A stretch of DNA of 64,000 nt from Chiloscyllium plagiosum (lineage: Eukaryota), in the NCBI RefSeq assembly GCF_004010195.1, contig NC_057719.1, forward strand, positions 37,630,547-37,694,546, read 5' to 3'. The notes under the pieces are model-generated. The model was not told where the DNA came from. It made no database searches and worked only from the letters and a program-made list of their open reading frames with translations. This document shows positions 7,408 through 53,633 of this stretch, in pieces (position 1 is the stretch's first letter; each line of letters begins with the position of its first letter). Position numbers and translations under genes: made by a program.

Positions 7408-7442
7408 CACTGGCTTTCGGAGCGTCACTCCTTCATCAGGTG
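7408..7442 (-). ncRNA. Hammerhead ribozyme motif (family B), cleavage-site U mutated
   Basis: cac-CTGATGA-a-ggagt gac gctcc-GAAA-gcCa-gtg. Confidence 0.6.
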
Positions 7443-9063
7443 GTAGTGGAGGGCTCAATCCTAACACACAGGACTTATAGCAAAAATTTAGTGTGATGTA
7501 ACTGAAATCATACATTGAAAAATTGATTGTCTGTTAAGCCTTTCATCTGTTAGAATACTGTGATAGTTTCACTTCTTTCATGTGTAAGTCACAAAACCTT
7601 TTTTTAAAAAGTTGCATTCTCGGGTTAGCTGTTAACAATGGTGATAGCTGGACAACATGCTGAAGGTACTAGCCCCCTGTGTTCCCTGTCTATGCCATGA
7701 TGTTTAGATTGATTCTAATCTAAAAAGTGAGATAATGGAATTCATGTAGTTTTTGAGCTCAGAGTTCTACATGAATGCATGCAGATTTTGAGCAAAGTAC
7801 AATGTAACCCAGCAAGTACAAATTCACCCCACAAAATATATGTGTGCATGTGGGTCTTTGTCTGTCTGTATGTGTGTGTGTGTCTGCCTGGGTTGGGGGT
7901 TGTGAGTGTGAGAAAGTGTATGTGTGTGTGTGTGTAGTGAGTGCAGAGTGTCTTAAGTCTGTGACAGGGTGCATGTGTGAGTGTGTGTGTCTGTAAGGGT
8001 GTGTGTGGGTGTCTGTGTACGCGTCTGTGTATATGTGTGTCTGTGTACACTGGGAGGGCACACTCCTGTCTGTTGATTGTCTATGTCCACACTCTGATAC
8101 GTCTTGCAGCGCCTACCATGGAGTTATCCTGAGAGCCAGGCAGCTTGGTGAGGTGCTCATCCTTATTGATAATGTGTTGCAGGTCACGAAGAACATGGCG
8201 TAATTTTTCAGCTCCTGGGAAATACTGAACAATGAAGGGTACTTCGTGACCTGCAATACATTATCGATGAGGATGAGCACCTCACCAAGACCTTCCCCTC
8301 ACCTCCACTACTTGCCTTTAAAGAACTGCCAAACCTCAAACAGATCATTGCTCATAGCAAGCTGCCTGGCTCTCAGGACAACTCCATACAACCCTGTCAC
8401 GGTAGGCGCTGCAAGACGTATCAGAGTGTGGATATAGACAATCAACAGACAGGAGTGTGCCCTCCCAGTGGACACAGACACACATATACACAGACGAGTA
8501 CACAGACACCCACACACACCCTTACAGACACACACACTCACACACTCGCACATGTACCCCGTCACAGACTTAAGACACTCTGCACTCACGACACACACAC
8601 ACACACATACACTTTCTCACACTCACAACTCCCAACCCAGGCAGACACACACACACATACAGACAGACAAAGACCCACATGCACACATATATTTTGTGGG
8701 ATGAATTTGTACTTGCAGGATTACATTGTACTTTGCTCAAAAATTGCATGAATTTATGTAAAACTCCGTTATCTCACTTTTTAGATTAGAATCAATCTAA
8801 ACATCATGGCATAGACAGAGAACACAGGGGGCTAGCACTTTCAACATATTGTCTAGCTATCACCATTGTTAACAGCTAACCCGAGAATGCAACTTCTTAA
8901 AAAGAAGTTTTGTGATTTACACATGAAAGAAATGAAACTATCACTGTATTCTAACAGATGAAAGGTTTAACAGACAATCAATTTTTCAATGTATAATTTC
9001 AGTTACATCACACTGTAAATTTTTGCTATAAATCCTGTGTGTTAGGATTGAGCCCTCCACTAC

Positions 9064-9098
9064 CACCTGATGAAGGAGCGAAGCTCCGAAAGCTAGTG
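9064..9098 (+). ncRNA. Minimal type-I hammerhead ribozyme motif (family B)
   Basis: cac-CTGATGA-a-GGAGC gaa GCTCC-GAAA-gc-TA-gtg: intact core, 5-bp stem II, palindromic AGCT stem III, cac/gtg stem I. Confidence 0.8.
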
Positions 9099-9604
9099 TG
9101 CTTCCAATTAAACCTGTTGGACTACAACCTGGTGTTGTGTGATTTTTAACCCCAATTCAGTATGTGGATGTACCTACTAGAGAAGGTGCAAAATTGACCT
9201 ACTCTTGGGAAATAAGACAGGGCTGGTGACTGAGGTGTCAGTGGGGGAGCACTTTGGGGCCAGCAAACATAATTCCATTAGATTTAAAATAGTGATGGAA
9301 AAGGATAGACAGATCTAAAAGTTGAAGTTCTAAATTGGAGAAAGGCCAATTTTGACAGTATTAGGCAAGAACTTTCGAAAGCTGATTAGGGGCAGATGTT
9401 TGCAGGTAAAGGGACAGCGGGAAAATGGGAAGCCTTCAAATAACAAGAATCCAGAGAAAGCATATTCCTGTTATGAAACTATCACTGTATTCTAACAGAT
9501 GAAAGGTTTAACAGACAATCAATTTTTCAATGTATAATTTCAGTTACATCACACTATACATTTTTGCTATAAATCCTGTGTGTTAGGATTGAGCCCTCCA
9601 CTAC

Positions 9605-9639
9605 CACCTGATGAAGGAGCGACGCTCCGAAAGCTAGTG
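9605..9639 (+). ncRNA. Hammerhead motif, duplicated copy
   Basis: cac-CTGATGA-a-GGAGC gac GCTCC-GAAA-gc-TA-gtg. Confidence 0.8.
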
Positions 9640-12600
9640 TGCTTCCAAGTAAACCTGTTGGACTACAACCTATGTTGTGTGATTTTTAACCCCAATTCAG
9701 TATGTGGATGTACCTACTAGTGAAGGTGCAAAATTGACCTACTCTTGGGAAATAAGGCAGGGCTGGTGACTGAGGTGTCAGTGGGGGAGCACTTTGGGGC
9801 CAGCAAACATAATTCCATTAGATTTAAAATAGTGATGGAAAAGGATAGACAGATCTAAAAGTTGAAGTCCTAAATTGGAGAAAGGCCAATTTTGACAGTA
9901 TTAGGCAAGAACTTTCGAAAGCTGATTAGGGGCAGATGTTTGCAGGTAAAGGGACAGCGGGAAAATGGGAAGCCTTCAAATAACAAGAATCCAGAGAAAG
10001 CATATTCCTGTAAGGATGAAAGGAAAGGCTGGTAGGTATAGGGAATGCTGGATGACTAAAGAAATTGAGGGTTTGGTTAAGAAAAAGAAGGAAGCATATG
10101 CAAGGTATAGACAGAATAGATCGAGTGAATCCTTAGCAGTGTATAAAGGCAGTAGGAGTATACATAAGAGGGAAATCAGGAGGGCAAAAAGGGGACATGA
10201 GATAGCTTTGGCAAATAGAATTAAGGAGAATCCAAAGGGTTTCACAAATACATTAAGGACAAAAGGGTAACTAGGGAAAGAATAGGGCCCCTCAAAGATC
10301 AGCAAGGCGGCCTTTGTGTGGAGCCACAGAAAATGGGGAAGATACCAAATGAGTATTTTGCATCAGCATTTACTGTGGCAAGGAATATGGAAGATATGGA
10401 AGATCTTGCAAAATGTCCAGATTACAGAGGAGAAGTGCTGGATGTCTTGAAACGGGTAAAGGTAGATAAATCCCCAGGACCTGATCAGGTGTACCCGAGA
10501 ACTCTGTGGGAAGCTAGAGAAGTGATTGCTGGGCCTCTTGCTGAGATATTTGTATCATCGATCGTCACAGGTGAGGTGCCGGAAGACTGGAGGTTGGCAA
10601 ACGTGGTGCCACTGTTTAAGGAGGGTGGTAAAGACAAGCCAAGGAACTATAGACCAATGAACCTGAACTCAATGGTGGGCAAGTTGTTGGAGGGAGTCCT
10701 GAGGGACAAGATCTACATGTATTTGGAAAGGCAAGGACTGATTCGGGATAGTCAACATGGCTCTGTGCGTGGGAAATCATGTCTCACAAACTTGATTGAG
10801 TTTATTGAAGAAGTAACAAAGAGGATTGATGAGGGCAGAGCGGTACATGTGATCTATATGGACTTCAGTTAGGTGTTCGATAAGGTTCCCCATGGGAGAT
10901 TGATAAGCAAGGTTAGATCTCACGGAATACAGGGAGAACTAGCCAATTGGATACAGAACTGGCTCAAAGGTAGAAGACAGAGGGTGGTGGTGGAGGGTTG
11001 TTTTTCAGACTGGAGGCCTGTGACCAGTGGAGTGCCACAAGGATTAGTGCTGGGGCCTCTACGTTTTGTCATTTACATAAATGATTTGGACAGTTTGTAA
11101 GTTTGCAAATGACACCAAAATTAGGGGTGTAGTGGACAGCAAAGAGGGTTACCTCAGATTACAACAGGACCTGGACCAGATGGGCCAATGGGCAAAGAAG
11201 TGGCAAATGGAGTTTAATTCAGATACATGCAAGGTGCTGCATTTTGGGAAAGCAAATCTTAGCAAGACTTACACACTTAATGGTAAGGTCCTAGGAAGTG
11301 TNNNNNNNNNNNNNNNNNNNNNGAGCTATAGGGAGAAACTGAACAGGCTGGGGCTGTTTTCCATAGAGGGGTGACCTTATAGAGGTTTACAAAATTATGA
11401 GGGGTATGGATAGGATAAATAGACAAAGTCTTTTCCCTGGGGTCAGGGAGTCCAGAACTGGAGGGCATAGGTTTAGGGTGAGAGAGGAAATATATTAAAA
11501 AATCCTAAGGGGCAACTTTTTCACAAAGAGGGTGGTGCGTGTATGGAATGGGCTGTCAGAGGAAGTGATGGAGGCTGGTACAATTGCAACATTTAAGAGG
11601 CATTTGGATGGGTATATGAATAGGAAGGGTTTGGAGGGATATGGGCCGGGCACTGGCAGGTGGGGCTAGATTGGGTTGGGATATCTGGTCTGCATGGACG
11701 GGTTGGACCGAAGGGTCTGTTTCCATTCTGTACATCTCTATGACTCTATGACTCTAAGTTTGTCAAACTTAACTTCCCTTTCGTAAATCAGATTGATGCA
11801 GCCAATTTTACATTTCTTTCTAAATGTTTCATTATCGCAGCCCTTATAATAGAATATATTATTTTCCCGAATATGCCAATCGTAACAGCTCAGTAGTTTT
11901 CCGTTCTTCCTCTTATCCCTTCCTAAACATTTGCTATCTTCCAGTCTGTAGAAACTGTTCCAGAATTGATAGAATTTGAATGATCACTACCAAGGCATTA
12001 ACTATTTCTCTAGGTGACTTCATCAATAATCTGTGATGAAGGTCTACCGGTCCAAGGGATTTATTAACATTCAATTCATTTAGCTTCTCACTCTTAGCTA
12101 ATGCTAATTTCTGGAATCTGGTTACACCAAGGATTATCGATGATGCTGGAATAATTACAACTCTTTCGAATAAGTTTGACAGATTCTTGCTAGGTCAACT
12201 ATTAAGGGTATGAAGAAAATCCAGGCAAATATAATTGAGTTACAGATAAATCATGATCTATTTGAATGGCAGAACAAGTATGATGGGCTGAGAAGCCTAT
12301 TTATGTATTAATTTATGTAACTCTAAAGCTATTAGTTTTGTTAGCTTGCATGCCCAAAAGGTGCAGTCCCAACTGGGTTCTTTATAGTGAGGAACAGGAA
12401 TCCTGACAGATTCTACCCCCCCCCCCCCGCCTCCTCGTACTCCATCTGAGGACCAGCTCAAGACAGGGACAGAAACTGAGGCCCCACAGTACTGTTTGCA
12501 TTACTGTGGAATATTTTGTATTTCAGGCAAGTTCAGAAATTGAAATAATGGCTTGGCAGCAATGAGTAAAATAGATGCCATTATTGTTTGCTCACAGGAA

Positions 12601-13459
12601 ACAAATAGCAGAGCAAAGCCAAGGCTGAAACTAGTAAAATGAGAATATTAAATAGCATTGTACAGTACTGCACAGCTGGTGTGCAAGCATAAAAAGGTCT
12701 TTATCAAGATGTATACAAGATTCTCAGGCAGCTGCCATGGTGCTTTCATCATGTGGCCACTCAACTTCCATAATGTTTTCATATTGACTGAAATCTAGCT
12801 TACTGGTTTACTGATTGGAGTCAAGGCATCCTCACATACAACATCACTGTGAGTAGCCAAAGCAGGGGGACTTTGGACTGATACCATGAATGCGTATGAC
12901 AATCAGATGTGTCCCTTGCAAACTGAAGCCTGGAGCCTGGACAGACCTGAAGCATTCTTCAGTATGTCAGCGACTCCAGAAAAGTGTGCTGTACTATGCA
13001 CATGAATACACATCAGTAACATTCAGACCAGCAGGAAGAACAACACTGAGAATAGACACTGTTCAGAAAACTCCCAGGATGAAAATACTAGATTCAACGA
13101 AACGTGGCCAAGTCATTCACAACGGCACACATCATTGCCCAGGATATGGGATGTTCTCGTTGAGAGATACACATACTCCACCCATCGGAGAGCCAAAATT
13201 AACTTCATGAACACCTCATTGCTCAGCATCAATCCTTGTCTTACCATTTATGCTGAGTGAAAAGGCTGCTTTCCATCCAGCAATGAAAAATGGACAAAAT
13301 AAGAAAGAAATATTATTCCAATGGCATTCAATTCCTTGCATAAGTGTATGCCATAAGAGTATTAAGTGCATATCCTTGCACAAGGTTTCAATGTTCTTCT
13401 TCCCAGTACTTCCACATGAAACAAACCATGGTTTCAGTGAAGGACTAGGAGACTGTCCA

Positions 13460-13650
13460 GATACCAGAAACAAAAACAGCAATTGCTGAAGAAACTCAGC
13501 AGGTCTAGCAAGATTTGTGGGGAGAAACCAACTGATCTGTAGAAGGGTCACTGGACTCAAAATGTTAACTCTGATTTCTCTCCACAGATGCTGTCAGACC
13601 TGCTGAGGTTTTCCAGCAATTTCTGTTTTTGTTTCAAATTTCCAGCACAG
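13460..13650. mobile_element. Old inverted pair of PLE termini (family C)
   Basis: aaacagcaattgctgaagaaactcagcaggtct versus agacctgctgaggttttccagcaatttctgttt; degenerate hammerhead at ~13535-13570. Confidence 0.7.
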
Positions 13651-15105: not shown

Positions 15106-15296
15106 GAGAAAGTGAGGTCCGCAGATGCTGGAGATCAGAGCTGAAAATGTGTTGCTGGAAAAGCGCAGCAGGTCAGGCAGCATCCAGGGAACAGGAGAAT
15201 CGACGTTTCGGGCATAAGCCCTTCTTCAGGATTCCTGTTCCCTGTTCCCTGGATGCTGCCAGACCTGCTGCGCTTTTCCAGCAACACATTTTCAGC
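15106..15296. mobile_element. PLE family A inverted mini-insertion with 15-bp TSD
   Basis: Inverted arms; CCATGTATAGTAGAG at 15091-15105 and 15297-15311. Confidence 0.88.
15197..15234 (-). ncRNA. Minimal hammerhead motif (family A)
   Basis: gaatc-CTGAAGA-a-GGGC ttat GCCC-GAAA-cg-TC-gattc; palindromic ACGT stem III. Confidence 0.8.
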
Positions 15297-15304
15297 CCAT
15301 GTAT

Positions 15305-16235
15305 AGTAGAGTAGAGTAGCCTTTATTTGTCATTTCTACCATATACAACTAATACAGTAAAAATGAGACAGCGTTCCTCCAGGACAGAGGGTTCTACATG
15401 GGCAGCACAAACTTCACAATCGTACATGGCATAAAGTGCATAACAAGTGCAAAACGTGCAAGTTACAGTGTAATGGAAGAATGAAAAATAATAGACATTT
15501 TTCTAGCAGCAATTCAAAGTCATGCAAAGTATTTCAGATGGGAAAGAGTCCGATCATACTGTGTTAAGGAGCCTGATGGCTTGGGGAAAGAAACTGTTGC
15601 ACCGTCTGGCCGTGAGAGACCGAATGTTCTGATACCTTTTGCCAGATGGCAGGAGGGAGAAGAGTTTGAATGAGGGGTGTCTGGGTCTTCCACAATGCTC
15701 TTAGCCTTTCAGATGCAGCACATGTTGTAAATGTCTGTAATGGGGGGAAGGGAGACCCCGATGATCCTCTTAGAGTTGTCCTCACTATCTGTTGTAGGGT
15801 CTTATGATCCGAGATGGAGCAATTCCCGAATGAGGCAATGATGCAACAGCTCAGGGTACTCTCAACGAACCCTCTGTAGAATGTGTTGAGGATGGAGGGT
15901 GGGAGGTGGGCTTTCCTCAGCCTCCTCAGAAAGTAGAGACACTGCTGGGCTTTCTTGCCTGTGGAGCTGATGTTGAGGATCCAAGTGAGATTCTCCGCCA
16001 GGTGTATGCCAAAGAATTTGGTGCTCTTCACGATCTCCATGGAGTAGCCGTCAATGTCCAGTAGAGAGCCCTCCTGAAGTCAATAACCATCTCTTTCATC
16101 TTGTTCACGTTCAGAGACAGGTTGTTGGCTCTGCACCACTCCATTAGCTGCTGCACCTCCTTCTGTATGCTGACTCATCGCTCATGCTGATGAGACCCAC
16201 TACAGTCATATCATCAGCGAATTTGATAATGTGAT
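15305..16235 (-). mobile_element. Rex1/Babar-type LINE 3' fragment
   Basis: KFADD near 16215; KKAQQCLYFLRRLRKAHLPPSILNTFYRGFVES; AATAAA plus (CTCTA)n tail. Confidence 0.8.
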
Positions 16236-17304: not shown

Positions 17305-17395
17305 TGTTAAAAATCACACAACACCAGGTTATGGTCCAACATATTTATTTGGAAACATTAGCTTTCGGAGCGCTTCTTCTTCATCAGGTGGTTGT
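17305..17395 (-). mobile_element. PLE family B terminal fragment with hammerhead core
   Basis: Matches 7358-7445; CTGATGA...GAAAGCTA on the minus strand at 17356-17390. Confidence 0.75.
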
Positions 17396-17759
17396 TGCAT
17401 TTTCAAATCATGACTACCATGAAATATCAGTGAGATCTAACCATCAAAATGATCCAGGCCTCCTCCTGTTCACAGGAGGCAGACAGCCCAATTGTCCACC
17501 CCATCATTCAGTGAAATTCTACCTTCAACTGAATCTCGATGGCTCAGTAGAAGGTTGTTAACTGTGTCAGTGCTTTAACTCTAATAAGCTTCTTTTGTGA
17601 AGAAAATATAGAAATACAGCCTCAGATTTACCGTAAAGATAACAATGAATTTAAAATATGTGAGATGACATGGTATGTAAAATCATTCAACAACTTGTGA
17701 CAAGGAAAGTGAATTGTAATTGGGTAACCCAATAAGTTACTGGATGATTTGTGTCCCTC

Positions 17760-25269: not shown

Positions 25270-27265
25270 AACGTGGTAGCGTCCTAAACCCAACCATTTT
25301 CAGCTGCTTCACCAATGACCTTTCTTCCATTGTAAAGTCAGAGTAGGGAAGTTCACTGATGATTACACAACGTTCAGCATCATTCAGGACTCCTCGATAC
25401 TGAAGCAGTTCAAGTCCAAATGCAAAAAGATCTAGATATTATCCATGCTTGGGATGATACGTGACAAGTTACATTTGTACCATACAAGTGCCAGGCACTG
25501 ACCATCTCCAACAAGAGAGATGTTTAATGATAATCATTATTATGAATTCTGCACTACAAACATCCTGGGGATTACTATTGACCAGAAACTAAACTGGACT
25601 TAGCTATATAAATACTGTGGTTATGAGAGCAGGTCAGAGGCTAGGAGTTATGTAGTGAGTAACTTACCTCCTGACTTCTCAAACTCCCCCACTTCCCCAG
25701 ATGAGTGAAGCTCCAAAAACTACACAAGAAGCTTGACACCATCCAAGATAAAGCAGCCCACTTGATTGGAACTATATCCAGGAGCATTCACTCCCTCCAC
25801 CACCCACACTGAGTAGCAGCTATGTACCATCTACAAGATACACTGCAGAACTTCACTAAGGTTTCTTAGACAGTGGGAATACATAGTCATAGAGATTTTC
25901 AGCACGGAAACAGACCCTTCGGTCCAACCCGTCCATGCCGACCAGATATCCCAACCCAGTTTAGTCCCACCTGGCAGCACCCAGCCCATATCCCTCTAAA
26001 CCCTTCCTTTTCATATCCCCATCCAGATGCCTTTTAAATATTGTAATTCTACTAGCCTCCACCACTTCCTCTGGCAGCTCATTCCATACACGTACCACCC
26101 TCTGCATGAAAACGTTGCCCCTTAGGTCTCTTTTATATCTTTCCCCTCTCACCCTAAACCTATGCCCTCTAGTTCTGGACTCCCCCACCCCAGGGAAAAG
26201 ACTTCATTTATTTATCCTATCCATGCCCCTCATGATTTTATGCACCTCTATAAGGCCACCCCTCAACCTCCAATGCTCCAGGGAAAACAGCCCAGCCTGT
26301 TCAGCCTCTCCCTATAGATCAAATCCTCCAACCCTGGCAACATCCTTGTAAATCTTTCCTGAACCCTATCAAGTTTAACAACATCTTTCCAATAGGAAGG
26401 AGACCAGAACTGCACACAATATTCCAACAGTGGCCTAACCAATGTCCTGTACAGCCGCAACATGACCTCCCAACTCCTGTACTCAATACTTTGACCAATA
26501 AAGGAAAGCATACCAAACGCCTTCTTCACTATCCTATCTACCTGCAACTCCAATTTCAAGGAGCTATTAACCCACACTCCTAGGTCTCTTTGTTCAGCAA
26601 CACTCTCTAGGACCTTACCATTAAGTGTATAAGTCCTGCTAAGATTTGCTTTCCCAAATGCAGCGCCTCGCATTTATCTGAATTAAACTCCATCTGCCAC
26701 TTCTCTGCCCATTGGCCCATCTGATCAAGATCCCATTGTAATCTGAGGTAACCTTCATCGCTATCCACCATACCTCCATTTTGGTGTCACCTGCAAACTT
26801 ACTAACCATACCTTTTATGCTCACATCCAAATCACTTATATAAATGACAAAAAGTAGAGGGCCCAGCACCAATCCTTGTGGCATTCCACTGGTCACAGAC
26901 CTCCAATCTGAAAAACAACCCTCCACCACCACCCTGTCTTCTACCTTTGAGCCAGTTCTGTATCCAAATGGCTAGATCTACCCTTGCTAACCAGTCTGCC
27001 ATGGAAAACCTTGTAGAACGCCTTACTGAATGACTTACATGTTCCTCTTCAAACCATTTATTATCCTTTCCTGGAAATGTATCGTTGCTTCTTCACTGCC
27101 ATTGGTTCAAAGTACTGGAACTTCCTCCCTCATGTGGGTGTCCCTCCAGCAAATGCAGTGATTCAAGAAGCAGATCACTATGATCATCTCAAAGGCAGCT
27201 AGAGATGGGCAATAAATACAGGCCCAGCCAGCAACGTCTACATTTTACGAATGAGTAAAAAAGAT
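25270..27265 (+). mobile_element. Old non-LTR LINE 3' part (25270-25875 and 27035-27265) split by a CR1
   Basis: VLNPTIFSCFTNDL and FTDD RT motifs; tail GATGGGCAATAAAT; related minus-strand copies at 32030-32540 and 44550-45210. Confidence 0.65.
25883..27030 (-). mobile_element. CR1 3' fragment
   Basis: [42 protein letters not shown]. Confidence 0.92.
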
Positions 27266-27777: not shown

Positions 27778-27907
27778 AGAAAGTGAGGGCTGCAGATGCT
27801 GGAGATCAGAGCTGAAAATGTGTTGCTGGAAAAGCGCAGCAGGTCAGGCAGCATCCAAGGAACAGGAGAATCGACGTTTCGGGCATAAGCCTTTCTTCAG
27901 GAATCTG
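27778..27907 (-). mobile_element. PLE family A mini-insertion with 10-bp TSD and hammerhead (27868-27905)
   Basis: AGTTCCTGAG at 27768-27777 and 27908-27917. Confidence 0.87.
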
Positions 27908-27919
27908 AGTTCCTGAGCA

Positions 27920-29640: not shown

Positions 29641-29773
29641 TTCCTGATGAAGGGCTTTTGCCCAAAACATCGATTTTCCTGCTCCTTGGATGCTGCCTGA
29701 CCTGTTATGCTTTTCCAGCACCACTCTAATCTAGACTCTGGTTTCCAGCATCTGCAGTCCTCACTTTTGCCTA
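29641..29773 (+). mobile_element. PLE family A mini-insertion with 11-bp TSD
   Basis: GGCAACTCTCA at 29630-29640 and 29774-29784; starts ttcCTGATGA. Confidence 0.87.
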
Positions 29774-30309: not shown

Positions 30310-31372
30310 ACTTTCCAAGGTCCCAGACACACCTTCCAGGTGAAGCAGTAATTTACCTGCACTTCATTCAATCCAGTTTCCTGTGTTTGATGCCCACAAT
30401 GTGGCCTCCTTTATATTGGGGAGATGAAGTATAGACCGGGCAACTGCTTTGCAGAACATCTATGTACTGTCTGTAAAAATAATGCTGAGCTTCCAGTTAT
30501 CTGCCATTTCAACACACGATCATGTTCCCTGGCCAACACCTTTGTCTCAGGCTTGCACCAATGCTCCAGCAAAGCTCAGTGCAAACTGGAAGCATAACAC
30601 CTCTTTTTCCGCTTGGGAAATCTGCAACCTTCTGGACTCAAATTGAAGTCAATGACTTTAGGGTGGACGACACCAGTTTTCTCATTTCCCCTCACCCCAT
30701 CTTATCACAGTTCCAAATTCCAACTCAGCACCATCCTCATGACCTGTCCCACCTGTCAATCTTTCTTCCCACCTATCCGCTCCACCCTCCTCCCCGACCT
30801 ATCACCTTTACCCCACCTCCATCCACCTATTGCACTCCCAGCTACCTTCTCCTCAGCCCCACCCCCTCCCACTTATCTCTTCACCCCCGATGCTTCCAGC
30901 CTCATTCCTGATGAAGGGCTCCTGCCCGAAACATTTATTTTCCTGCTCCTCGGATGCTGCCTGACGTGCTGTGCATTTCCAGCACCACTCTAAACTTCAC
31001 TCTAATCTCCAGCATCTTCAGTCCTCACTTTCGCCTACCTTCTTTCATGTCCTTACCCCAACCACCACACACCAGGCCCTGTCATCACATGGGCTGCTAT
31101 CACAAATAACCCATTGTTGGTTACTAATGGTCCCCTTTAGCAACTATTTATTCTTCCATTCTTTTTTTCTGCCCATTCTTTTATTCCCTCCAGGCTCCAC
31201 CTGTCATTTACTCCTCCCTCCTCCCACCACTCTTTCTTCAGTATATATATCAACCTTTTCCTGGCTACAATTAGTTCTGAAGAAGGGTCACTGGACCTGA
31301 AACATTAATTCTGATTTCTCTCCACTGATGATGCCAGATCTGCTGGGCTTTTCCAGCAATTACTGATTTTTG
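30310..31372 (+). mobile_element. PLE GIY-YIG endonuclease remnant with family A and family C termini
   Basis: FTCTS..CPQCGLLYIGE..FAEHL; hammerhead cores at ~30908 and ~31277. Confidence 0.8.
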
Positions 31373-36420: not shown

Positions 36421-39400
36421 TAATAACATGGAGGCAAATATCTAGGTACCATTCTGTTCTTCTGTGCAACAGTTTGATCAGGATCTGAAACTCTCTATGT
36501 TAGTGATGAGTTAAAGCAGTACACAGTTACCCTGTTGTCACATGTTATAATGAAATGGTACATCAGTTTACTGCATGATTGGCTCCGTTGAATGCTAATT
36601 CTGGGGCATCATTGCACCAGAAGGATTTGAATAGATATTGTGAAAGACTATGTATAAGATCACTTGGTGTCTTGCATGTTGAAAAATTGTTGCATTGGTG
36701 ACATGACTTAAGCAGAACAAGGAAACTTGGTAAGCAGTGAAGAGGGAGAGAGAACTTGCTTCAGGAGGGTGGGAAAGTCACATTTCCCTTTATGCTGGGA
36801 ACACCAGTGGCAGTTACTATTGCAGTTTAGCCATTCTAAATTGTAAAACTGTGTTACCCTACTCATTAGGGACAAAGTCACCAAAGATCTGTGAGTACGT
36901 ATTCAAATGACAATGGCTGTGTGAGTTTATCATATGTGACTTATGTGGAGCAGGAAGGTTCCCAAGCTGTGATTTGCACAGTGTTTGCTGGATAAAGATA
37001 TGATGCTAAAATTGACCTCAGTTGTCCTCACTTTGGAGAGAGAAAAACATCCAAGGTTTCCATACAATGATTTTGTTCGAAATGTGAGGGCAGGATCAGG
37101 TTGAACTGGTTTTGAGGAAGGGTCACTGGACCCGAAACGTTAACACTGAAGCTGGCAGAACTGCTGAGCTTTTCCAGTGATTTCTGTCTTTGTTTCAAGT
37201 TGAGCTTCAAGTTGAGTTGGGGATAGCTGCTAAAACTCACTAACAGGATTTTCAAGTGAACAAAACTGCCACTTCAGCGAACTAAGAAAGAACAAGCTAC
37301 ATCAAGAGAATAATTACAGGAGAGCAAGAAGTCAAAGGTTCAGCTCACTCCTGGAGAGAAACTAAAAATCTGTGACACATCTTAATAAGACCTTCATAGT
37401 TCATCTGATTCCCTTTGTGAAATTGCAACTTTTTGATTGACCATCACCACATTTATAAACCTACAAGCTATTTGTGTCTTATTCAGACATGAAATCTGGC
37501 ACCATGATAGTTTGAGAATGGCACATAAAAATGTGTTTTTAATTAGAAAGAGCATGAGGTTTAATGAGGGTTTCTTATGCATATGTGTATATACAATTTA
37601 TACACATATGTCTATGAGGTTCACTCATGTCCATTAGGGAAGAGAATCTGTCATTCTTACCCAATCTGACCAACATGGACTCTAGATCCACAGCAATGTA
37701 GCCAACTCTTAAATACTCTCTGAAATAGTCTAACAAAGCACTTAGTCATATCAAACTGCTACACAGTCAAAAAGGAATGAAACTGGCTGGACTGCCTCAC
37801 ATCGAACAAAGCATCAGAAGTAATGCAGCACATCCAGCTGTACTGGCCCTGCAAAATAGCTACCACAGAGAAGGTCGAGAGAGGCAGATGCATGTAACGC
37901 CACCACCTGCAAGTTTCCTTCCAAGCCATAGACCTTTCTGACTTGGAATTATATCATCATTTTTTCATTATTACTGGGTCAGCAGCTTAGAACTAGTTTA
38001 ACAGCATTCTAAGTGTCCCCAGAAACTCAAGGACTGCAGCAGTTGAAGAAAACAACTCACCCTCACTTCCTCAAAGTATGTAGAGTCACAGCATCATACA
38101 GCATGGTAATTAAGACTAAAAATGGGCCATTCAACCCTTCAAGTAAAATCATGGCCATCAATTTGAGTTCTGAATTTCACAAGCTTTAACGTTGACTTAG
38201 TTCTGCCCAGTGCACGTTTTTTAAAATTGAAAGTCATGTTTAATGTTGTGCCAAACCAGATCTCAGGCAGCTGTTCTTGTGAGAAGCTCACAAGAAGTCT
38301 GATTGTTTTTTGGAGGACTACCAGAAAGGGTTATCTTTGCTCCAATAGAGATGGGTAATGTTGGTAATGCTCAGTACATCTGCAGTGTCTATGCCGAGAG
38401 AGAAACAGAGGTCAATGAGTCTTCATCAGAATGTGTGAAGTTTGTGGACCTGAAGCAATAACTCTGTTTCACTTGCCACAGATGTTCCTGGCCTCCTGAG
38501 TATTTTCACATTCTCTGTTTGCATTTTAGATTTCTAACATCTGTGGTGCCTTAGTCTCCTGCTTAATGCTCCAAGTTAAGTATTTTTAAGTCTGATTGGT
38601 TTCAATTTAAACTGAGAAATCATTTTTCATTCAATGCAAAGTGTACTATTTCTGTTAACAAATCCAGTAATTTGGATGTGTTGCGTTTGGGCATTATATA
38701 GGGCCAAGTTCAAAGAAGTGAGTTGAATAATAAGGACAATCAAGCTGTTTGTAATTATCTGACAGAGACATGGTTGTAAAATCTATCACACTGACACCCG
38801 AGCTTTTGACAGGTTTTCTAAACAGCGTGTAAAAGCCAAGAGATTTTGCCAAATCTATCTAAACAGTTCAAACTCGGTGTTACCATAATTCAGGGCACCC
38901 AAAAGTTGTGAGTTGGGGTAGAGATAATGGACCTCAAAGCAGGGAAAGCATCTGATTTCTCTACTTGGCCCTGGTAAAGTATTGTAAGTGGACTGAAGTG
39001 ATAACTTTATTGAGCATAATAGTCAAGTTAACAGGAACTGAATGTAGTACAACAGAAAAGCTGTACAACAAAAAGAGTTCCACTGAATCCCTATCAAAGC
39101 TTTTCGTCAGAATAAGGATTAAGATTTGTAAAGCTTGTTAATGTACAAACCCTACTGCCTGTATCAGAATGTCCTGATCATTATCATCCTTTCAATTAAC
39201 AGTAGATCTTGAAACTGTCTGTTAGTATAGAGGTCTGATAGATCACACATCTTTAAAAAAAACTACTTACTCAAGTTGTAACTTTCTGATGACCTGCTAA
39301 GATATACAGGAATTCTTTTCATCACTATTACAGTTAATTCTGTGAGTCTAGCACACTCATACCATCTCACTTTCAACATATTCTTAATAACACAGATATA

Positions 39401-41254: not shown

Positions 41255-41815
41255 CATTGTAAAAGCTGAAAGAACTGTGGACGCTGTCAATCAGAAACAA
41301 AAACAGATGTTGCTCGAAAAGCTCAACAGGCCTGGCAGCATCTGTGAAGAGAAATCAAAGTCAATGTTTCAGGTATGGGACTCTTCCTCAGAACTGATGG
41401 TAGCTCGGAAAATGTCAGTTTACATGCAGATGAAAGGGTTGGGGAGGAAGTATGGAGTAAACAGTAGGTGGAGACGGAGCCCAAAGAGAGAGAAGAACAT
41501 TTGGATAGACAAAGAAGTCAGTAATGATCTAGCTGGGAGGACAAATAGCTGTTAATGGAGACTGTTAGTGCAATTGGTAGTGTGTAATGGCAGAATATGT
41601 GATAACAAGGCCTGGTGTGTATGGTGAGGGGACGAGGACTTGGGGAAGTTCAGGCCTTAAAATTATTCAAGTCAATATTAGGTCCAGAGTGCTGCAGAGT
41701 CCCCAAGTGGAAAATTGGGTGTTGTTCTTCCAGCTTGAGTTGAGCCTCGCTGGAGCACTGCAGCAACCCTGAGCCAGAGATGTTGGCCAGGGAACAGAAT
41801 TGTGTGTTAAAGTGG
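41255..41815 (-). mobile_element. PLE family C 3' fragment
   Basis: KLEEQHPIFHLGTLQHSGPNIDLNNFK is a PLE ORF C-terminus; family C terminus. Confidence 0.8.
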
Positions 41816-45244: not shown

Positions 45245-46435
45245 TGAGAGTGTGTTGCTGGAAAAGCACAGCAGGTCAGGCAGCATCCGAGGAACAAGAG
45301 AATCAATGTTTCGTGCTGGAGCCCTTCATCAGGAACCTGAGAACATGGCTGAAGAGCTTCAGGGCAGAGGAGAGGACTTGGGGAGTACAGTGAGAGAGGG
45401 ACTCACTGAGATCTTTGTAGAGAGAGAAGAACTTCTTCAAGGTAGGCATCCTTGGAAGAGGCTTTGCAGTAAAGTGAAATCAACGAGGAGAATGTGAGGA
45501 TTAGATTAGATTAGATTAGATTAGATTACTTACAGTGTGGAAACAGGCCCTTCGGCCCAACAAGTCCTCACCGCCCCGCCGAAGCACAACCCACCCATAC
45601 CCCTACATTTACCCCTTACCTAACACATTAGCATGGCCAATTCACCTCAGAGAGTTGCCTGAGGCGGGAATTGAACCCGGGTCTCTGGCGCTGTGAGGCA
45701 GCAGTGCTAACCACTGTGCCACCGTGCCGCCGATGCTGGAGATCAGAGCTAAAAAATGTGTTGCTGGAAAAGCACAGCAGGTCAGGCAGCATCCAAGGAG
45801 CAGGAGAATCAATGTTTCTGGCATTCCTGAAGAAGGGCTTATGCCCGAAACATCGATTCTCATGCTCCTTGGATGCTGCCTGACCTGCTGCGCTTTTCCA
45901 ATAGCATAGCAGCAGGTCAGGCAGCATCTGAGGAGCAGGAAATTTGATGTTTCAGGCCAGAGCCCTTCATCAGGAAATGGCTCAAGAAGGGCTCCGGCCC
46001 GAAACATTGATTTTCTTGCTCCACGAATGCTGCCTGACCTGCTGTGCTTTTCTAGCAGTGCACTCTCAATTCTGATCTCCAGCATCTGCAGACTTCACTG
46101 TCTCCTTGTCATCACGTGGTCTGCTATTACACATAACCCATTGTTTCCATGACTCGACCCCAATGGCAGCTATTCATTCTTCTAGGCTGACTATTATTCA
46201 CTCCTTTGTCTGTCCAGTTGTTCTTCCCTCCCTTTTGGTTCTATTTCTATCTTTCATTTACTCCTCCCCCAGCCCTATCTTCTGCTCAAAAGCCAACCTT
46301 TTCCTACCTACCATCAGTTCTGAAGCAGGATCACTGGACCTGAACATTAACTCTTGACTTCTTCCAGAGATGCTGCTGGACCTGTTGAATTTTTTCAGCA
46401 AATTCTGTTTTTGCTTCTGATTTCCAGCTTCTACG
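45245..46435. mobile_element. Nested cluster of PLE termini in both orientations plus an internally deleted HE1 SINE (45499-45731, minus)
   Basis: At least six PLE terminal segments with hammerhead-like cores; (ATTAG)n SINE tail. Confidence 0.8.
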
Positions 46436-46579
46436 GTTATCTTGTTTTTGTTTGGCTTGCTGCATTTGGATTACTGTATATTGTAATACTAGGTTAACAC
46501 TTCCTCAGCTTGTTTCACCTGACAGACAAAAGATTTTTATCTCATCAGTCTACATGCATTTGACTCAGGTTCTGAAAAA

Positions 46580-47085
46580 TAAGAACATAAGAAATAGGAG
46601 CAGGAGGAGACCATCTGGCCTCTCGAGCCTGGTCCACCATTTATTAAAACATGATTGATCTTATTGTGGCCTCAGCTCCGCTTACCCACCTGTTCACCAT
46701 AACACTTAATTCCTTTACTGTTCCAAAATCTGTATATCTTTGTCTTAAAAATATTCACTCAACTGTTTCACTGGGGAGGGAATTCCACAGATTCACAATC
46801 CCTTGGGTAAAGATGCTCCTTCTCAACTCAATCCTAAATCTACTCCCCTTTATTTTGAGGCTATGCCCCCAGTTCTATTTTCACTCACCAGTGGAAACAA
46901 CCTTCCTACTCCTATCTTACTTATTCTCCTTCATAATTCTAGGTTTCTATATGATCTGCCCTCATTCTTTTAAATTTCAATGAGTATAGTCCCAGTCTAC
47001 TCAATCTCTCCTCATCAAGCAACTCTCCCAACTCTGGAATCAACCCAGTGAACCCTCTCTGCAACCCTTCCAATTCAGTATATCC
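46580..47085 (-). mobile_element. CR1 3' fragment (AAGAACAT-tailed subfamily)
   Basis: aagaacataagaaataggagcagga tail and CR1 RT end. Confidence 0.75.
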
Positions 47086-47429
47086 AAGTGAAAGGTCAAA
47101 GTAGTTAACTACTACAATTAGTCCATCTCACTAGAAAAGGATAAGAAGGTGAGAAGCCATGGACAAATTGCAAGTGAGAACAAGAATTTTAATTTAAACC
47201 TGAATGGGGATTAAGAGCCAATGTAGATTGATAAACACAGGTCAAGGGACGAATGTGACTTAATTGGTGACAGAATGTTGGCAACAACAAGTTGAAAGGA
47301 TGGAAATTTATGTTGGATCAGAAGTCAGCTAGAAAATAATTGAAATGGTCAAGACTGAGGTAACAAATTCATTGATGAAGATTGCAGCAGCAAATGGGCT
47401 GAAGCAGGGCTGAAGGTTTAATTTTGTCA

Positions 47430-47730
47430 TTCAGTCCTACCGTATGGAACAGGCTATTTGGTCCATCGAGCCACACTAACCCTCTAAAGAGCACCCCACC
47501 CAGACCAACGTGATCCCTATAACACTGCATTTCCCATGGCTAATCCATCTAGCCTACACATCACTGAACACTATGGGTAATTTAGCATGGCCAATCCACC
47601 TAACCTGCATATCTCTGGACTGTGGGAGAATGTGCAAGCTCCACACAGACAGCCATGTGAGGGTGGAACTGAACCTTGGACCCTGGCACTATGAGGCAGC
47701 AGTGCTAACCACTGAACCACCATGCCACCC
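47430..47730 (-). mobile_element. V-SINE (HE1-related); similar copy at 49468-49820
   Basis: tRNA-like head and shared aatttagcatggccaatccacctaacctgcac core. Confidence 0.8.
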
Positions 47731-48839
47731 TAAGATGGGCAGTTTTACAGTGATGAAAGTAGGGTCATTCACCTAATGAAGAATGGGATAAAGGATTCAG
47801 TTTATGGTGACATGCAAAGCAGTATGAAGGTTTGAACAGTTTGATTCATCCTGAGATAATAGCTTGTGAGAGTTATCAAATCAGCAAGAAGATGATACCA
47901 TTTTTAGTAAAAATGGAAAGGGAAGAACACTGGTAGGCAAGGATGGAATTTATCAGGATGATCCATGTTTCCAGGTATCTAGGGAAGGATTTTTTTTATT
48001 CTTGAACCACTTAAGGAAGCATTTATCTGCTGTACCAGAGTTACTGGAATTACTACAAACTAACATTAGAATTGTCCAGAAAAAACAAGACCCTTGCCAA
48101 GTACTTACAATGCCTACCATGTCATTCCCCTTGGCAGCATGCAAGGATCCAAAAAACTCAAAGCCAAAGACATGAAAGGCATTACATAAGTACAAGTTGT
48201 AGTTGATAATAAGATCAGCTATATACACTATGTAGCAAAAGGAAAACAGATGTGAATTCTAAAGCTATTAATCATTCTGTATTTTTGTACAATGTCGACA
48301 ACTTGTATTTATATACAGCTTTTATTGCAGAAGAAAGACCCATGTTGCTTCACAATCAATAAGATCTACTCATAACAGTCATCTTTTCTTTTGGGCATAA
48401 CTTGACACTCGATGCTTATCCCATGGATGGAAACTGGAGGCCATAACGTCCACAGCAACCCACTTTCAACTATCAACTTCAGTCACTGGACAGTTAATGA
48501 CAAGCCAACAGCAAGTGCACAGAAACGAAAGCCCAGATTGACCCTGGAGGTGGGAGTGGGGCAGATTCAAGGACAGAGATGCTGCTGGCAAAGTTTCTCA
48601 AATGGATATTGTCAGTGTTTAATCACACTACATGGGGGCCTCATGGAGAATACAATCTGATGGGACTCCAAAGTTTCAAAAGTGTCAAGATATTGCTGAG
48701 TGTAAAAGTTCTCTTCAGCCAGTCTCATTGCCACTGACAAACTTAACTCAGAGAATAGGCTAAAAAGTCTTACAATCACAGAATGCATCCTGCAGAGATG
48801 CCGGAGGAGCGTACACGCACAGCTCCACTACACACACTT

Positions 48840-49010
48840 GAAGTCTTGTGTATCTTCCTCTCAGGTATCAATGAGTGGCAGGAGGTTCTTTTCTCATGAG
48901 ATAGCAAAACAAGTATAAGCCAGGATGGATATGAAAGACATTGTCAGCACCAGTGGGGCTGTAAATAGGAGCTGGTTGTAGTGTTGGAAAAGGATGAATG
49001 ACCTTCTACA
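48840..49010 (+). mobile_element. Harbinger Myb/SANT-like remnant; similar one at 57300-57465
   Basis: WMDMKDIVSTSGAVNRSWL*CWKRMNDL. Confidence 0.55.
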
Positions 49011-50944
49011 ATAAATGAGTAGGGAAGCCACTTGGCAATGCCAATGAGTGTCTCTGGGAGAATATTTGATGTGACTGGGAACTTCCTGCTGTGTGTGCAT
49101 AGTTTATTGCATGAATGTCCATCGTGCACCATGGGTTACGTTGTTTCTATACTTGATTGTGTTGGAGGTGCAACTGGAAAGGCACCAAAGCAGTAATTTG
49201 TGGTGCAGGAAGGTTGGTAATGAGGAGCGTTTCCTTGAGCAGCTACTCCATTCAGACTTTGGTATCATTATTTTACATTTGTCTTAAAAAGAGAAGAGCA
49301 CACGTTGTCCATGAACACTAATGACAGATGGTGGAGTGTCAAATTTCATAACAGTGACCTCTATGAGGGATGACTTGAACTGACTGGCCAACAGGACAAG
49401 AGATTCATTGCCAAAGGAGAAGCAGCATTTTTCAAGAGGCTGCTGGGGGTGAAAGAAAGCTCTTGAAATAGAATCATAGCATCCCTACAATGTGGAAAGA
49501 GGCCATTCAGCCCTTCAAGTCTGCATTGACCCTCCAAAGACCTACCCACTCAGATCAAGCCCTCAACTCTATCCCCATTATCCTATATTTGCCATGGCCA
49601 ATCCAACTAACCTCCGTTTCCCTGGATACTGCAGGACAATTTAGCATTGCCAATTCATCTAACCTGCACATCTTTGGGCTGTGGGAGCAAATGGGAGCAC
49701 CCAGAGGAAATCCATGCAGACACAGAGAATGTGAAAACTCCACACAGCCAGGCACCCAAGGCTGGAATCACACCCAGGTCCCTGGCATTATGAAGCAGCA
49801 GTGCCAGCTACTGAGCCAAGAAACCTCACTATCATCATTTCAAAAGTTACAATGGTGACTACAATAGTAGTTATGAGATGGCTAGTTATGAGATGCAGTT
49901 TTGGTATTTCCAAATTATTACTTGGAAATAGAGAACTTGAGTATTGCTGAAAAAAACACCCACTTTGTTGGAGTTTTATTTACCTTGTACTCATTCAGAC
50001 ACTTTGCAATGTGAAGAGAATTTAATCTCTTTACATTACTGAGAAGAGAGTTCTGCTTTGTTGGCAAATGGACTTTGAATTTGAAGAGACATTGCCATGG
50101 AGAATGCACTAATTAAATAATGACTGGCAGTTAACTGCCAAGCATAATTTAAATGCAGTATAAAAATTTCAGTGTCAGTGTGATCCTAGCTATCTAGAGT
50201 GTGTTTCACAAAGGCTGGTAGATCACATCAAACAGGTACACCTGCATCTGTTCACACAAACAAGATATTGAGACCCACTCAAATGTTGACTAGTATTCCT
50301 TCTAATTTTCTTTCTGTCTGCATGAGCCTCTAAAGTCTATGTGTGCCAATGACTTCCAGAATTGGAAGTCAACATTGCATTCAGCGTGCAGATGCCAATC
50401 GCCATGTGTGAAACCCTGGAGTGGCTTTGCATGTGTGCGGCCATGCAGCTTAGCGGGACCATTGATGACCATCCTCTGAAGATGTTCATCAGGTGGCCAA
50501 TGTTGAAGCTTCCGGAAGGAATGCACATCAGGGCACAGAGTGACAAAGTCCATTGTTAACAGATTAGCACCCCAAGGTAGACATTTTTTAAAAACTTTTA
50601 ATTCCAAAATGTGTTTTTATTTTAAAAAGAAGGCTATTACAAAACAAAATAGCTGCAAGTGGAATTCACTAACTGTCTGGCAAACTGCTGTGTGAAGTTA
50701 GTGGAATGTCTCAAAATGCCACAAAACCTTAAACAGACAGAGACCTAACAAAACGATGTTACAAGGATCTGACCATTTCCACAAAGGCAGCCCCCAGGGC
50801 CACAACTTTGAGAACAGCCCTTTTTAAAAACCCTGCCTTGCATGTAAAACAAAGGAATAGACTCACTCTCACTCTCACTCTGAGGACTGGAATTCAGTCA
50901 CTGTCAGTAGGAGATGGGTCAGCATAATTTCAACCAACCCATTC

Positions 50945-51325
50945 TCTGGAGCATTGGAACTGAAAGGTGTCTTTATAGATGCTTATAAAATCATGAGGGG
51001 CATGGATATGGTGAATAGCCAAAGTCTTTTTCTCAGGGCAGGGGAATCCAAAACTGGAGTACATAGGGTTAAGGTGAGAGGGGAAAGATTTAAAAGGGAC
51101 CTGAGGAGCAACATTTTCACACAGAGGGTATGGGATGAGCTGCCAGAGGATGTGGTACAATTACAACATTTAAAAAAGAACCTGGACAGGTACATGAATA
51201 GGAAGGGTTTAGGGAGATATGGGCCAAATGCTGGCAATGGGACTAGATCAGTTTAGCATGTCTGGTCAGCATGGATTAGTTGGACTGAAGAGTCTGTTTG
51301 CGTGCTGTATAACTCTATGACTTTA
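50945..51325 (+). mobile_element. CR1 3' end
   Basis: YKIMRGMD..FTQRVWDELP and CR1 UTR. Confidence 0.88.
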
Positions 51326-53202
51326 CGACTGTGAAATTAGAATTTTGAAATCCACAACTCAATCGCCAATGTCAATGCTATGGGTGCCATCTAATAATGC
51401 TTTCAACATTTTCATGCCTGCTCTTCATGAACAATTCAGACAGTGATCTGTATTTTTTAAAATTTCACCTCTAATCTCTAATTTGCATGCAGTTTGTGTT
51501 ACATAATTATCCCTTTCCTTTTTAATCATTAATAAACTCACTCTTTTGCTAATTCAACAAAGACTTGTTATATTAGCTCCTTATAATGCATTAGTTTATT
51601 TAGATCTGGAAAAAAGGTATTCACAAGGGAAGGAATCTTTTCTTGAATTAACACTATTGTAACCTCCTACACTGCAGATGAACACCCAAGGGCAACCAGT
51701 TCATGCCTCCTCAGCTGGGAGCTTAACAATTTGAGATATCACATCTGGAACAATAACAAGCTGGGGAACCTTGCCTAGGATTCTGGTCATGAGACTGATT
51801 CAGCCATGAATGCTGCAATCACCTCGCTTCATTATGCAAGACATTCTCCATTAAGAGATTGGTGACCTTCATAGAGAACCACACTCAGCAGCTCAATCAG
51901 GAGGCTCTGACGAAGCATTCAGACTTATAAGCACATCTATTGTCAATGATATTAGCAAGGCATAGCCTGTGCAAGAGAAGAGCTCGATACCTGGAGTGCT
52001 AGCAAGGTTCCAGTTCACTTATGATGAGCAGGGAGGTTCCCATTAGTGTTAGTGGATGAGCCCCAGCTCTCCATATTTGGACGTTCTCTCTGGGCCCTGG
52101 ATGGTGACAGCGGTTCCTCTGCTTCTCTGCCATTGACATCAGTGTGTCATTTGCTGCGGTGACAGGAGACTGTGTCACTGTGCAGCAATCACTCACTTTA
52201 TCTGAGCCCTCACTGCCACATGACGCTTGCCGGACCAAGAGGAGACTAAATTCAGCAGCTGACATCCAACATGTTTGGCAGCTATGAGAGAAAAATCGCA
52301 GCACAGCACTCAGAAAAGGATAACAAAAGCCCTTTGAACATTAAAGGCTGATAGATGGATGTGGGAGAATCTCAAACTAAGCCAGAGAGCTGTGGAGCTT
52401 AAATCACTGAAAGGATTTAAAGAAGACATAGATTTTTGGAATATCTGAAAAGTTGAAGTCTCTGATGAGTTGAAAAAGAGGTTGAGGCCTGGGGCAGGTC
52501 ATCCGTGATTTGATTGAATGCTGAGGCAGGCTTTTGGTTCTGAATGGTTTACTCCTGCTCCAATTTCTTACAATCTAATGTTCACAGAATTTTCGGGGGT
52601 GGAAAACAACCCTATTATCGCTGAAGAAACTTCAGTTCACAGAAACCAGCAAAGTTTGTGATAAGGTGCAGACAAGGAGAAAATGATTGAGCAGCACATG
52701 CCACTCAGGTTCATTGATCAAACTTTGACTGCAGTTGCTCTGGCACAAAATCAGCCTGGTTAGTAAATTGTAATAGCAGATTCAAATTTGAAGTCAGATG
52801 CTGAAACACAAGTTCAAGGAGAATATTTCAATTCTTCATCTTCTAAGGAATAATTATTAGTACCAGCGATAGAGCTAAGTCAGCAGCAACTATCAGGGGG
52901 AAGTCTGAAGATGGGAACATGTTGGGTTCATCAATAAGACAACTTAAGAGGGTGAAGGAAGATGTTCGACCTAATCAACAGGTTGAAATAAAGAGTTTAT
53001 GTACGTCAATACAGATGTATCAGCAGATTGACAATGAAGATTTGCTTGCATAGATTGAAAATGGGCTGCATGCAGTTCTACAGAAACCAACACTGAGATG
53101 GAGGGCGAATGTTCACAGCTTCAAGATACTATCAAGAAGAAACTATCTTGCTCTGAGATCCAGAAAAACGACAAAAAGAAAGTAAATATTTCAATGGAAC
53201 AG

Positions 53203-53633
53203 GGTAAAAACAAGGACTGCAGACTCTAGATTAGAGTGGTGCTGGAAAAGCACAGCAGGTCAGGCAGCATCCAAGGAGCAGGAAAATCGACATTTCGGGC
53301 AAAAGCCCTTCATCAGGAATGAGGCAGGGTGCCTACAGAGTGGAGAGATAAATGAGAGGGGTGGCGGGTGGGGAGAAAGTATGGGGTTGAAGTGTTCTGA
53401 GGTAGAAGATGAGGCGTTCTTCCCCCAGGCATCGGGTGGAGAGGGAGCAGCGGTGGAGGAGGCCCAGGACCTGCATGTCCTCGGCAGAGTGGGAGGGGGA
53501 GTTGAAATGTTGGGCCACAGGTTGGGGTTGATTAGTGCGGGCATCCCGGAGATGTTCCCTAAAGCGCTCTGCTAGGAGGCATCCAGTCTCCCCAATGTAG
53601 AGGAGACCGTATCGGGAGCAACGGGGGATACAG
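53203..53633 (-). mobile_element. PLE family A 3' fragment (GIY-YIG) with 8-bp TSD
   Basis: GLLYIGETGCLLAERFREHLRDAR..VAQHFN; TGGAACAG at 53195-53202 and 53634-53641; hammerhead core at ~53286-53320. Confidence 0.88.

Follow-up and report, generated by a model that had tools for sequence, protein, structure and literature searches.

A stretch of 64,000 nucleotides from the genome of the shark Chiloscyllium plagiosum (assembly GCF_004010195.1, contig NC_057719.1, positions 37,630,547–37,694,546; hereafter the window) was investigated for hammerhead ribozyme motifs associated with Penelope-like elements (PLEs), three families of which, A, B and C, had been proposed from the sequence alone (the original prediction). 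The motifs appear to be minimal type-I hammerheads in the pseudo-long terminal repeats (pLTRs) of these elements, and most of the short copies are probably run-off reverse transcripts of the front of a capped RNA that had not been cut. Motif positions are numbered relative to C3, the base with which the CUGA core begins.

Family B is represented in the window by an intact hammerhead at 9067–9095 (+; C3 at 9067), recognized by descriptor and by its sequence, with stem I CAC/GTG and a predicted cut after A9095, the same position that had been forecast for it from the letters. A TATAAAT box of the pLTR (9027–9033, +), whose promoter function is presumptive, lies 32 nt before the putative transcription start at 9059 (+), the A at −8 in TCCACT, where short B copies begin, mostly with an extra G. 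An ATTAAA signal (9107–9112) and the sites that correspond to the poly(A) ends of RNA reads on a homologous copy (+57 and +60; locus L024) fall within 9107–9127 (+). All of this belongs to a 5′-truncated B element at 8239–9150 (+), in which a remnant of the linker between the reverse transcriptase (RT) and the endonuclease (EN) is fused to the end of the open reading frame (ORF), the GIY-YIG region being deleted, and is followed by the 3′ untranslated region (UTR), the hammerhead and a short tail. It stands head to head with an inverted B partner with a long tail (7354–8254, −), whose hammerhead (C3 at 7439) has U16.1 changed to C. A second intact B hammerhead (9608–9636, +) lies within a 541-nt tandem duplication that includes flanking DNA resembling long interspersed nuclear elements (LINEs); 9067–9636 is thus a natural tandem pair, two intact hammerheads on the same strand 541 nt apart, of which the second has an altered poly(A) signal. 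The remaining copy is a short stub with a broken stem II and a start near −8 (17359–17387, −; C3 at 17387).

Copies outside the window (L-numbered loci) were used for comparison. L235 is a near-full-length but broken B element with a damaged upstream pLTR and an ATG where the long tail ends. Its single open frame of 597 aa contains an RT (Pfam RVT_1, E=1e-7), followed by the linker CHGRRCKTC (CxxxxCxxC) and a VVY..YIG core holding inner cysteines, and then by the 3′ UTR, the hammerhead and the short tail. Judged from L235, a full-length element would have a pair of hammerheads separated by about 3.4 kb. The B hammerhead lies in the pLTR on the ORF-sense strand in both L235 and L237. The proposed location downstream of the GIY-YIG region therefore holds for B, and for C, at the family level only; in the B copies of the window the ORF end follows straight after the linker. 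Between its two 3′ end sites the B tail (L235 3380–3425) has what look like a branch point, a pyrimidine tract and, just ahead of the ATG, a CAG; these may form the acceptor of a 5′ UTR intron, such as fly Penelope has. An older B subfamily (rows with CACTTCAC) has one base fewer before the core, which would place the start at −7.

Family A, of which A1, A2 and A3 are subfamilies, and family C are also present in the window. The A1 hammerhead at 15202–15229 (−; C3 at 15229) is intact and forms part of a fold-back stub in which the inverted partner supplies a six-pair stem I. The A1 stub at 27873–27900 (−; C3 at 27900) starts at −4 with a preceding G and has G10.1 changed to A. At 30908–30935 (+) the hammerhead of a long copy (from about 30715, with a remnant of the endonuclease C-terminus near 30598) has a stem III decayed to ACAT. 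A cluster of A stubs and fold-backs occupies 45305–46008, with C3 at 45332 (−), 45827 (+), 45973 (−) and 45981 (+), none of them intact, and the copy at 53289–53701 (−; C3 at 53316, stem III ATGT) retains a GIY-YIG remnant (53701–53390) upstream of the hammerhead. An A stub with G12 changed to A (29644–29671, +) was missing from the original prediction, and further damaged A stubs lie near 1796–1823 (−) and 22976 (+). The C copies comprise a hammerhead with a decayed stem III and TATATA about 30 nt before −4 (31277–31306, +), a stub with C3 changed to T (37112–37141, +), a copy with a damaged core (46320–46348, +), a fold-back stub also damaged in the core (13537–13566, +) and an additional copy at 41391 (−).

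All 13 of the copies originally listed were thus located at the places given (as C3: A at 15229−, 27900−, 30908+, 45827+ and 53316−; B at 9067+, 9608+, 7439− and 17387−; C at 31277+, 37112+, 46320+ and 13537+), but only three keep core, stem II and palindrome (15229 in A; 9067 and 9608 in B), and none of the four C copies does. Their description as PLE-associated minimal type-I hammerheads of a known class on the ORF-sense strand is supported. On their letters, then, the window copies are genuine but mostly decayed examples of the known minimal hammerhead of PLE pLTRs; the copies in the window are ordinary dead repeats.

Remnants of RT, linker and GIY-YIG sequences also lie upstream on the same strand in A copies outside the window (L031, L044 and L052), as at 53701–53390 within it, and similar RT, linker and GIY-YIG-type remnants precede the C hammerhead in L077. 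The A and C ORFs are broken remnants similar to the L235 frame; the A linker is a damaged CHHRNCK and that of C is too decayed to call. No intact full PLE ORF was seen for any family among the copies examined. Ten very long family A ‘open frames’ were rejected, being assembly gaps. Young A2 elements (L223–L232) adjoin assembly gaps of 2.4–5.7 kb, often between inverted ends, and full-length copies have probably been collapsed in the assembly. Much of the remaining window consists of LINE-like RT remnants (10225–10872, 26263–26673, 50861–51256 and 15564–16079); the last matches Pfam ALKBH8_N and is probably a LINE-derived piece. A Pfam search of eight window frames gave two matches, both in LINE-like frames, and no PLE domain.

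A strict descriptor, with core, stem II and a stem I of at least three pairs as requirements, gave four matches in the window, three with a palindromic stem III, compared with none in each of 20 dinucleotide shuffles. In a blind sample of 120 stretches of 10 kb (1.2 Mb, with 1,156,928 called bases, from large contigs only) there were 31 matches (26 palindromic) against means of 0.4 (0.2) in five shuffles. Exact 30–33-mers searched across 3.56 Gb of genome numbered 48,069 for A, 809 for B and 104 for C, and reversed-pattern controls gave none. Profile matches in the blind sample (219 A, 78 B and 79 C) extrapolate to about 670,000, 240,000 and 240,000 copies, respectively, inverted partners included, and the descriptor-grade copies to about 80,000. 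Among core-spanning copies, core, stem II and palindrome were all intact in 40/124 of A, 15/53 of B and 0/28 of C. An Rfam scan of the window included no hammerhead among 22 matches at E ≤ 10, and its miRNA-like matches were found to be fold-back stubs.

The majority letters of A, B and C all contain the core CUGANGA, GAAA and UH, a stem II closed by G10.1-C11.1 with an extra base after A9, and a loopless, palindromic stem III (ACGU in A and C, AGCU in B). Stem I has three pairs in B, four in C and A3 and, in A1 and A2, three that flank a U·U mismatch. Subfamily A3 (L060 402, L091 9036 and L099 5050) differs from A1 and A2 in its perfect four-pair stem I and in an AATAAA near +75. A fourth family, D, was represented by three copies in the blind sample (L113 4757, −; L156 9762, −; L205 9820, +); it has an extra T after A9 and a longer stem II and loop, and the third pair of its stem I is C-G, G-C and T-A in the three copies.

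Copies were found in the blind sample and the window with profiles restricted to sequence 3′ of the cut site, which avoids selecting for the core, and were then extended against natural long copies; two A matches at stretch edges and two unaligned C matches were left out, and 5 of 90 seed loci were omitted from the profiles. Within the 12 positions −12 to −1 lay 83 of the 230 5′ ends of A, 30 of 82 of B and 20 of 84 of C, with only 13, 8 and 9, respectively, across the 88 positions from −100 to −13. Thirty A and 15 B copies extended beyond −100; none of C did so, the C references representing one young subfamily, so that long C copies may be under-called. The modal 5′ ends were −4 in A, near −9 and −4 in B, and −3/−4 in C. 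The 3′ ends were bimodal, at 75–95 and 120–129 in A and at 80–89 and 120–125 in B. About 60 % of the short copies had inverted partners (A 67/114, B 25/37). Splice acceptors were rejected as the origin of the 5′ ends, the AG lying at about −17 (A2) and −21 (B), off the peaks, as read by eye.

The base that precedes these ends is biased. Junction bases were counted by eye, and the first 30 rows of each A1 set were confirmed by script (G/T/A 21/6/3 and 8/12/10). In the 100 listed of 2,481 A1 matches, the base before A(−4) was G in 57, T in 29 and A in 14, compared with G 19, T 53 and A 28 before +1 in a control (100 listed of 823 matches). The G:A excess was significant (Fisher p=1.3e-5; 6.9e-5 without seven rows whose G may stem from an inverted partner), the background G/(G+A) being 0.39, and it persisted in rows without an inverted copy within 2 nt (G13 T5 A3, n=21, vs G6 T7 A9, n=22). 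In B rows with −8 to −1 intact and no C at −9, 11 of 13 unambiguous bases were G, two T and none A, with seven further ambiguous G (p=9e-5, by eye), and one inverted B pair had the extra G on both arms. Derivation of the G from a tandem junction with the downstream GATTC was rejected, there being no such row among the 57 A1 rows with G. An extra G marks capped full-length L1 inserts (PMC11702581).

TATAAAT lies about 30–32 nt upstream of the putative start in B, and C has TATA-like words. The putative start positions fit the initiator-like words TCATTC or TTATTC, TCAGTT and TCCACT. Promoters are known from PLE pLTRs (PMC2377424, PMC3846280), and a TATA box with an initiator has been noted in a rotifer pLTR (PMC3846280).

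RNA evidence was available for family B only, in the form of raw poly(A) single-cell reads (run X21, of which about 1 in 100 was read) mapped to the B pLTR of L024. Of 1,551 mapped reads, 386 ended in poly(A), 178 at +57 and 208 at +60, 15–18 nt past ATTAAA or AATAAA and at genomic letters that are not A-rich. Read depth ran unbroken across the cut site. What the reads show is sense RNA that had not been cut and that ends just past the hammerhead, about 30 nt beyond the cut site. No pile-up of read begins or ends was listed on the B pLTR, and cut products would be lost from a poly(A) library.

The account that we favour would run as follows. A TATA-like box and an initiator would set transcription to begin at −4 in A and C, the first base of stem I, or at −8 in B; by analogy with a lizard element, the RT would prime within the RNA from two sites in its tail (about +85 and +125), copy to the cap and add a G; and the inserted copies would then decay. 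As a switch the ribozyme may be weak, dependent on a second hammerhead as partner and probably on the element's protein as well. Cutting at the front copy would leave the RNA without its cap, and cutting at the rear copy without its poly(A) and priming tail; we therefore propose that the ribozyme is a brake or processing step and is not needed for insertion. The start site, the cap origin of the G, internal priming and any catalysis are what we infer. The lizard precedent is the Anolis Poseidon element PAc, for which internal priming, protein-assisted cleavage and insertion from uncut RNA have been described (Frangieh et al., 2024; PMC11167929).

Several results weigh against this account. The 5′ ends scatter across about 10 nt, and many of them abut the inverted partners counted above, which can supply letters. 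Family C has no G excess (G9 T11 A7 in 27 rows, p=0.46), the −30 element of A is TTATCT and not TATA, and A1, A2 and C are without a clear poly(A) hexamer. No RNA 5′ end was observed in X21, a poly(A) library being a poor test of starts; the poly(A) reads may be host transcripts that end in inserted B copies; and they come from an organism that may differ from the species of the window.

One alternative, implied by the original prediction, is that these are obligate dimer ribozymes that cut the element from longer transcripts without protein, as a required step of copying. The geometry is suggestive, a loopless 4-nt palindrome being unable to pair with itself; the two hammerheads of full-length elements would offer partners; and the minimal hammerhead of Schistosoma shows low activity as dimer and trimer (PMC4209133). 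However, most copies span the cut site, so that their templates must have been uncut, and 5′ ends within 3 nt of the cut site were few (A 9, B 1, C 3), with no peak there in the blind sample; this distribution rejects the cut site as the main class of 5′ ends. In vitro, insertion of the lizard element proceeds normally in catalytic mutants (PMC11167929). When five natural copies were folded, 14 of 15 folds gave stem II a predicted probability above 0.9, but the active dimer as modelled was less stable than two free monomers in all five (−9.5 to −18.3 vs −14.4 to −22.8 kcal/mol at the shortest length), which is consistent with the low activity of minimal hammerheads (PMC4209133) and with the protein dependence of the lizard ribozyme (PMC11167929). 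Some cutting is hinted at by A1/A3 copies broken between +24 and +33 (100 listed of 1,119 matches, read by eye), 17 of which start at +28, the first base after the cut, with 8, 9, 7 and 10 at the positions before it and 8, 10, 4 and 4 after it (mean 7.5), 16 at +33 or later and seven ambiguous. The excess has a Poisson p=0.002, or p=0.04 with the 13 starts left after removal of four rows of possible CpG decay, and in one fold-back (G000:C2:133328355-133328415) both arms, 3 nt apart, start at the first base after the predicted cut. This roughly two-fold bump weakly suggests cutting of a minority of the templates; obligate, protein-free dimer cutting seems unlikely.

It may equally be asked whether the pile-up of 5′ ends arose where an RT stops, or repair is biased, at the motif's fold or at the junctions of fold-backs, with a G that is untemplated or borrowed and owes nothing to a cap. 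The frequency of inverted partners among A stubs, about 60 %, and the missing G excess in C are in keeping with this, as is the occurrence of G at −3 and −2 junctions in a small set read by eye, and head-to-head palindromes have been read as self-priming on antisense RNA (PMC3846280). Yet an RT stalled by the fold should halt at its 3′ side rather than a little beyond its 5′ side, the G excess is specific to position and persists in rows free of an inverted copy within 2 nt, and the position of the ends shifts with the initiator-like motif, from −4 in A to −8 in B, where the TATA spacing is kept. We consider this explanation improbable. Least convincing, and in our judgement very unlikely, is the motif as a passenger or relic retained through its overlap with promoter and 5′ UTR signals that never cuts in the cell, which would suit the near-neutral decay within families described below, the stem I mismatch (U·U) in the two commonest A subfamilies and the success of Naiad PLEs without hammerheads (PMC8557442), but not a core common to A, B, C and D with compensated helices, nor the full four-pair stem I of A3.

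That comparison between families bears on the claim that covariation across three families indicates selection on the fold. Core letters are identical in the four families while the helices change in compensated fashion: the first pair of stem I is C-G in A and B, U-A in C and A-U in D; the second is U-A in A and C and A-U in B; the third is U·U in A1 and A2, U-A in A3, C-G in B and G-C in C; and stem II of some C copies is GAGUC/GACUC. The families are not three lineages, since the 3′ flanks of A and C are identical at 62–64 of 86 letters, close to the level between A1 and A2 (65/86), with B at 45–51/86 under the same forced alignment; A and C thus form one lineage, and two lineages remain. 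Within families, in copies that had been chosen to span the core, conservation of core and flank was about equal (A 0.960/0.947, p=0.06; B 0.932/0.940, p=0.53; C 0.911/0.861, p=0.04). Pairing is kept across families, but the core is barely better kept than the flank within them, and the sequences indicate that single inserted copies decay about neutrally and that selection acted on the source elements.

Run-off copying from a capped, uncut front can be extended to a more speculative picture in which the pLTR is laid out like a retroviral LTR, with a U3 promoter, an R bounded by the cap site and the poly(A) site, with the hammerhead inside it, and a U5 formed by the priming-site tail. This picture is drawn from the poly(A) site at +57/+60 lying upstream of the priming tails and of the B ATG. 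The RT would prime in the front tail and make strong-stop cDNA to the cap, and would then either jump to the rear R, so that the whole element is copied, or fail and leave one of several hundred thousand cap-marked stubs; the hammerhead would be a gate, since cutting would decap the RNA and destroy the homology for the jump. Read-through past the poly(A) site would also explain the long copies, and we hold the scheme as a whole to be tentative and unlikely. Of 24 copies with an A2 U3, one (L224) switches at the start site to the R and tail of A1, with two similar rows among the 100 listed A1 junctions; another set gave no subfamily chimera at the start site among its 100 listed rows. The copy in L224 (927–1094) is a chimeric stub inside a fold-back, with about 30 nt of A2 upstream of an A1-type hammerhead and tail, joined within letters shared at the putative start.

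The ribozyme class was already known, and the families here are additional examples. Like those of Cervera and De la Pena (2014; PMC4209133), these hammerheads are of type I without loop III, with palindromic 15.2–16.2, an extra base between 9 and 10.1 and the G10.1-C11.1 pair, and occur as thousands of lone copies in several families per genome. They differ from those of Schistosoma in their shorter helices (4–5 pairs in helix II and 3–4 in helix I, against 7–8 and 4–5), and the copy numbers extrapolated here, about 80,000 at descriptor grade, are far above those in the same report. That report describes minimal hammerheads in the fish elements Xena, Poseidon and Neptune, in coelacanth and in Xenopus, and its searchable supplement files contain no mention of shark. 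The small PLE variants of Lunse, Weinberg and Breaker, known here by secondary description (PMC6765202), likewise have a very short palindromic stem III and cleave as dimers, and may include cartilaginous-fish sequences.

The closest functional parallel, PAc, also has two internal RT start sites downstream of the hammerhead with the tail between them and uncut RNA as the main template, and its hammerhead cut only with the element's protein (PMC11167929). It belongs to the Poseidon clade and its ORF starts inside the hammerhead, whereas in B the ATG lies about 120 nt downstream and the cysteine linker is present; cap-marked stubs and a poly(A) site do not figure in the portions of that account consulted. 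Features of EN+ PLEs were found in B (L235), namely a single ORF with RT plus a C-terminal GIY-YIG holding inner cysteines, together with a pLTR, an inverted partner and an optional tail. EN+ PLEs of the Neptune clade share the RT, a CX2-5CxxC linker, the C-terminal GIY-YIG with inner cysteines, inverted 5′-truncated partners and a tail of 30–40 nt (PMC8557442). The accessible text of that study gives the linker as absent from Penelope/Poseidon and present in Neptune and Nematis, and in a partly accessible preprint only Neptune and Poseidon were found in vertebrates (bioRxiv 10.64898/2026.07.22.740005). Since the linker is present and the range of vertebrate PLEs is so restricted, the elements are, on their sequences, likely of the Neptune clade, the linker being shared with Nematis.

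Animal non-LTR retrozymes are likewise PLE-derived, non-coding and hammerhead-bearing, and are known in one chondrichthyan genome (bioRxiv 10.64898/2026.07.22.740005), but they form tandem arrays, whereas the copies here are dispersed single stubs or fold-backs without the upstream promoter part. Assignment to this class was rejected: copies are single or inverted, and the sole tandem pair (9067 and 9608) includes flanking LINE-like DNA. A literature search, largely outside whose coverage subscription papers fell, found no account of these families, of PLE hammerheads in sharks, of PLE stubs marked by a cap or of strand transfer in PLEs.

The job of the hammerhead in PLEs has been called ‘still unclear’ (PMC8557442). 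Here, in families of very high copy number, the ends of the copied RNA are preserved. If our account is true, the capped RNA has the hammerhead right at its front, within a repeat that runs from the start to the poly(A) site, and uncut RNA would be the main template in the animal, as it is in vitro for the lizard element. It would also give exact positions at which starts, poly(A) addition and cutting can be tested, and a testable LTR-like model of how PLEs are copied.

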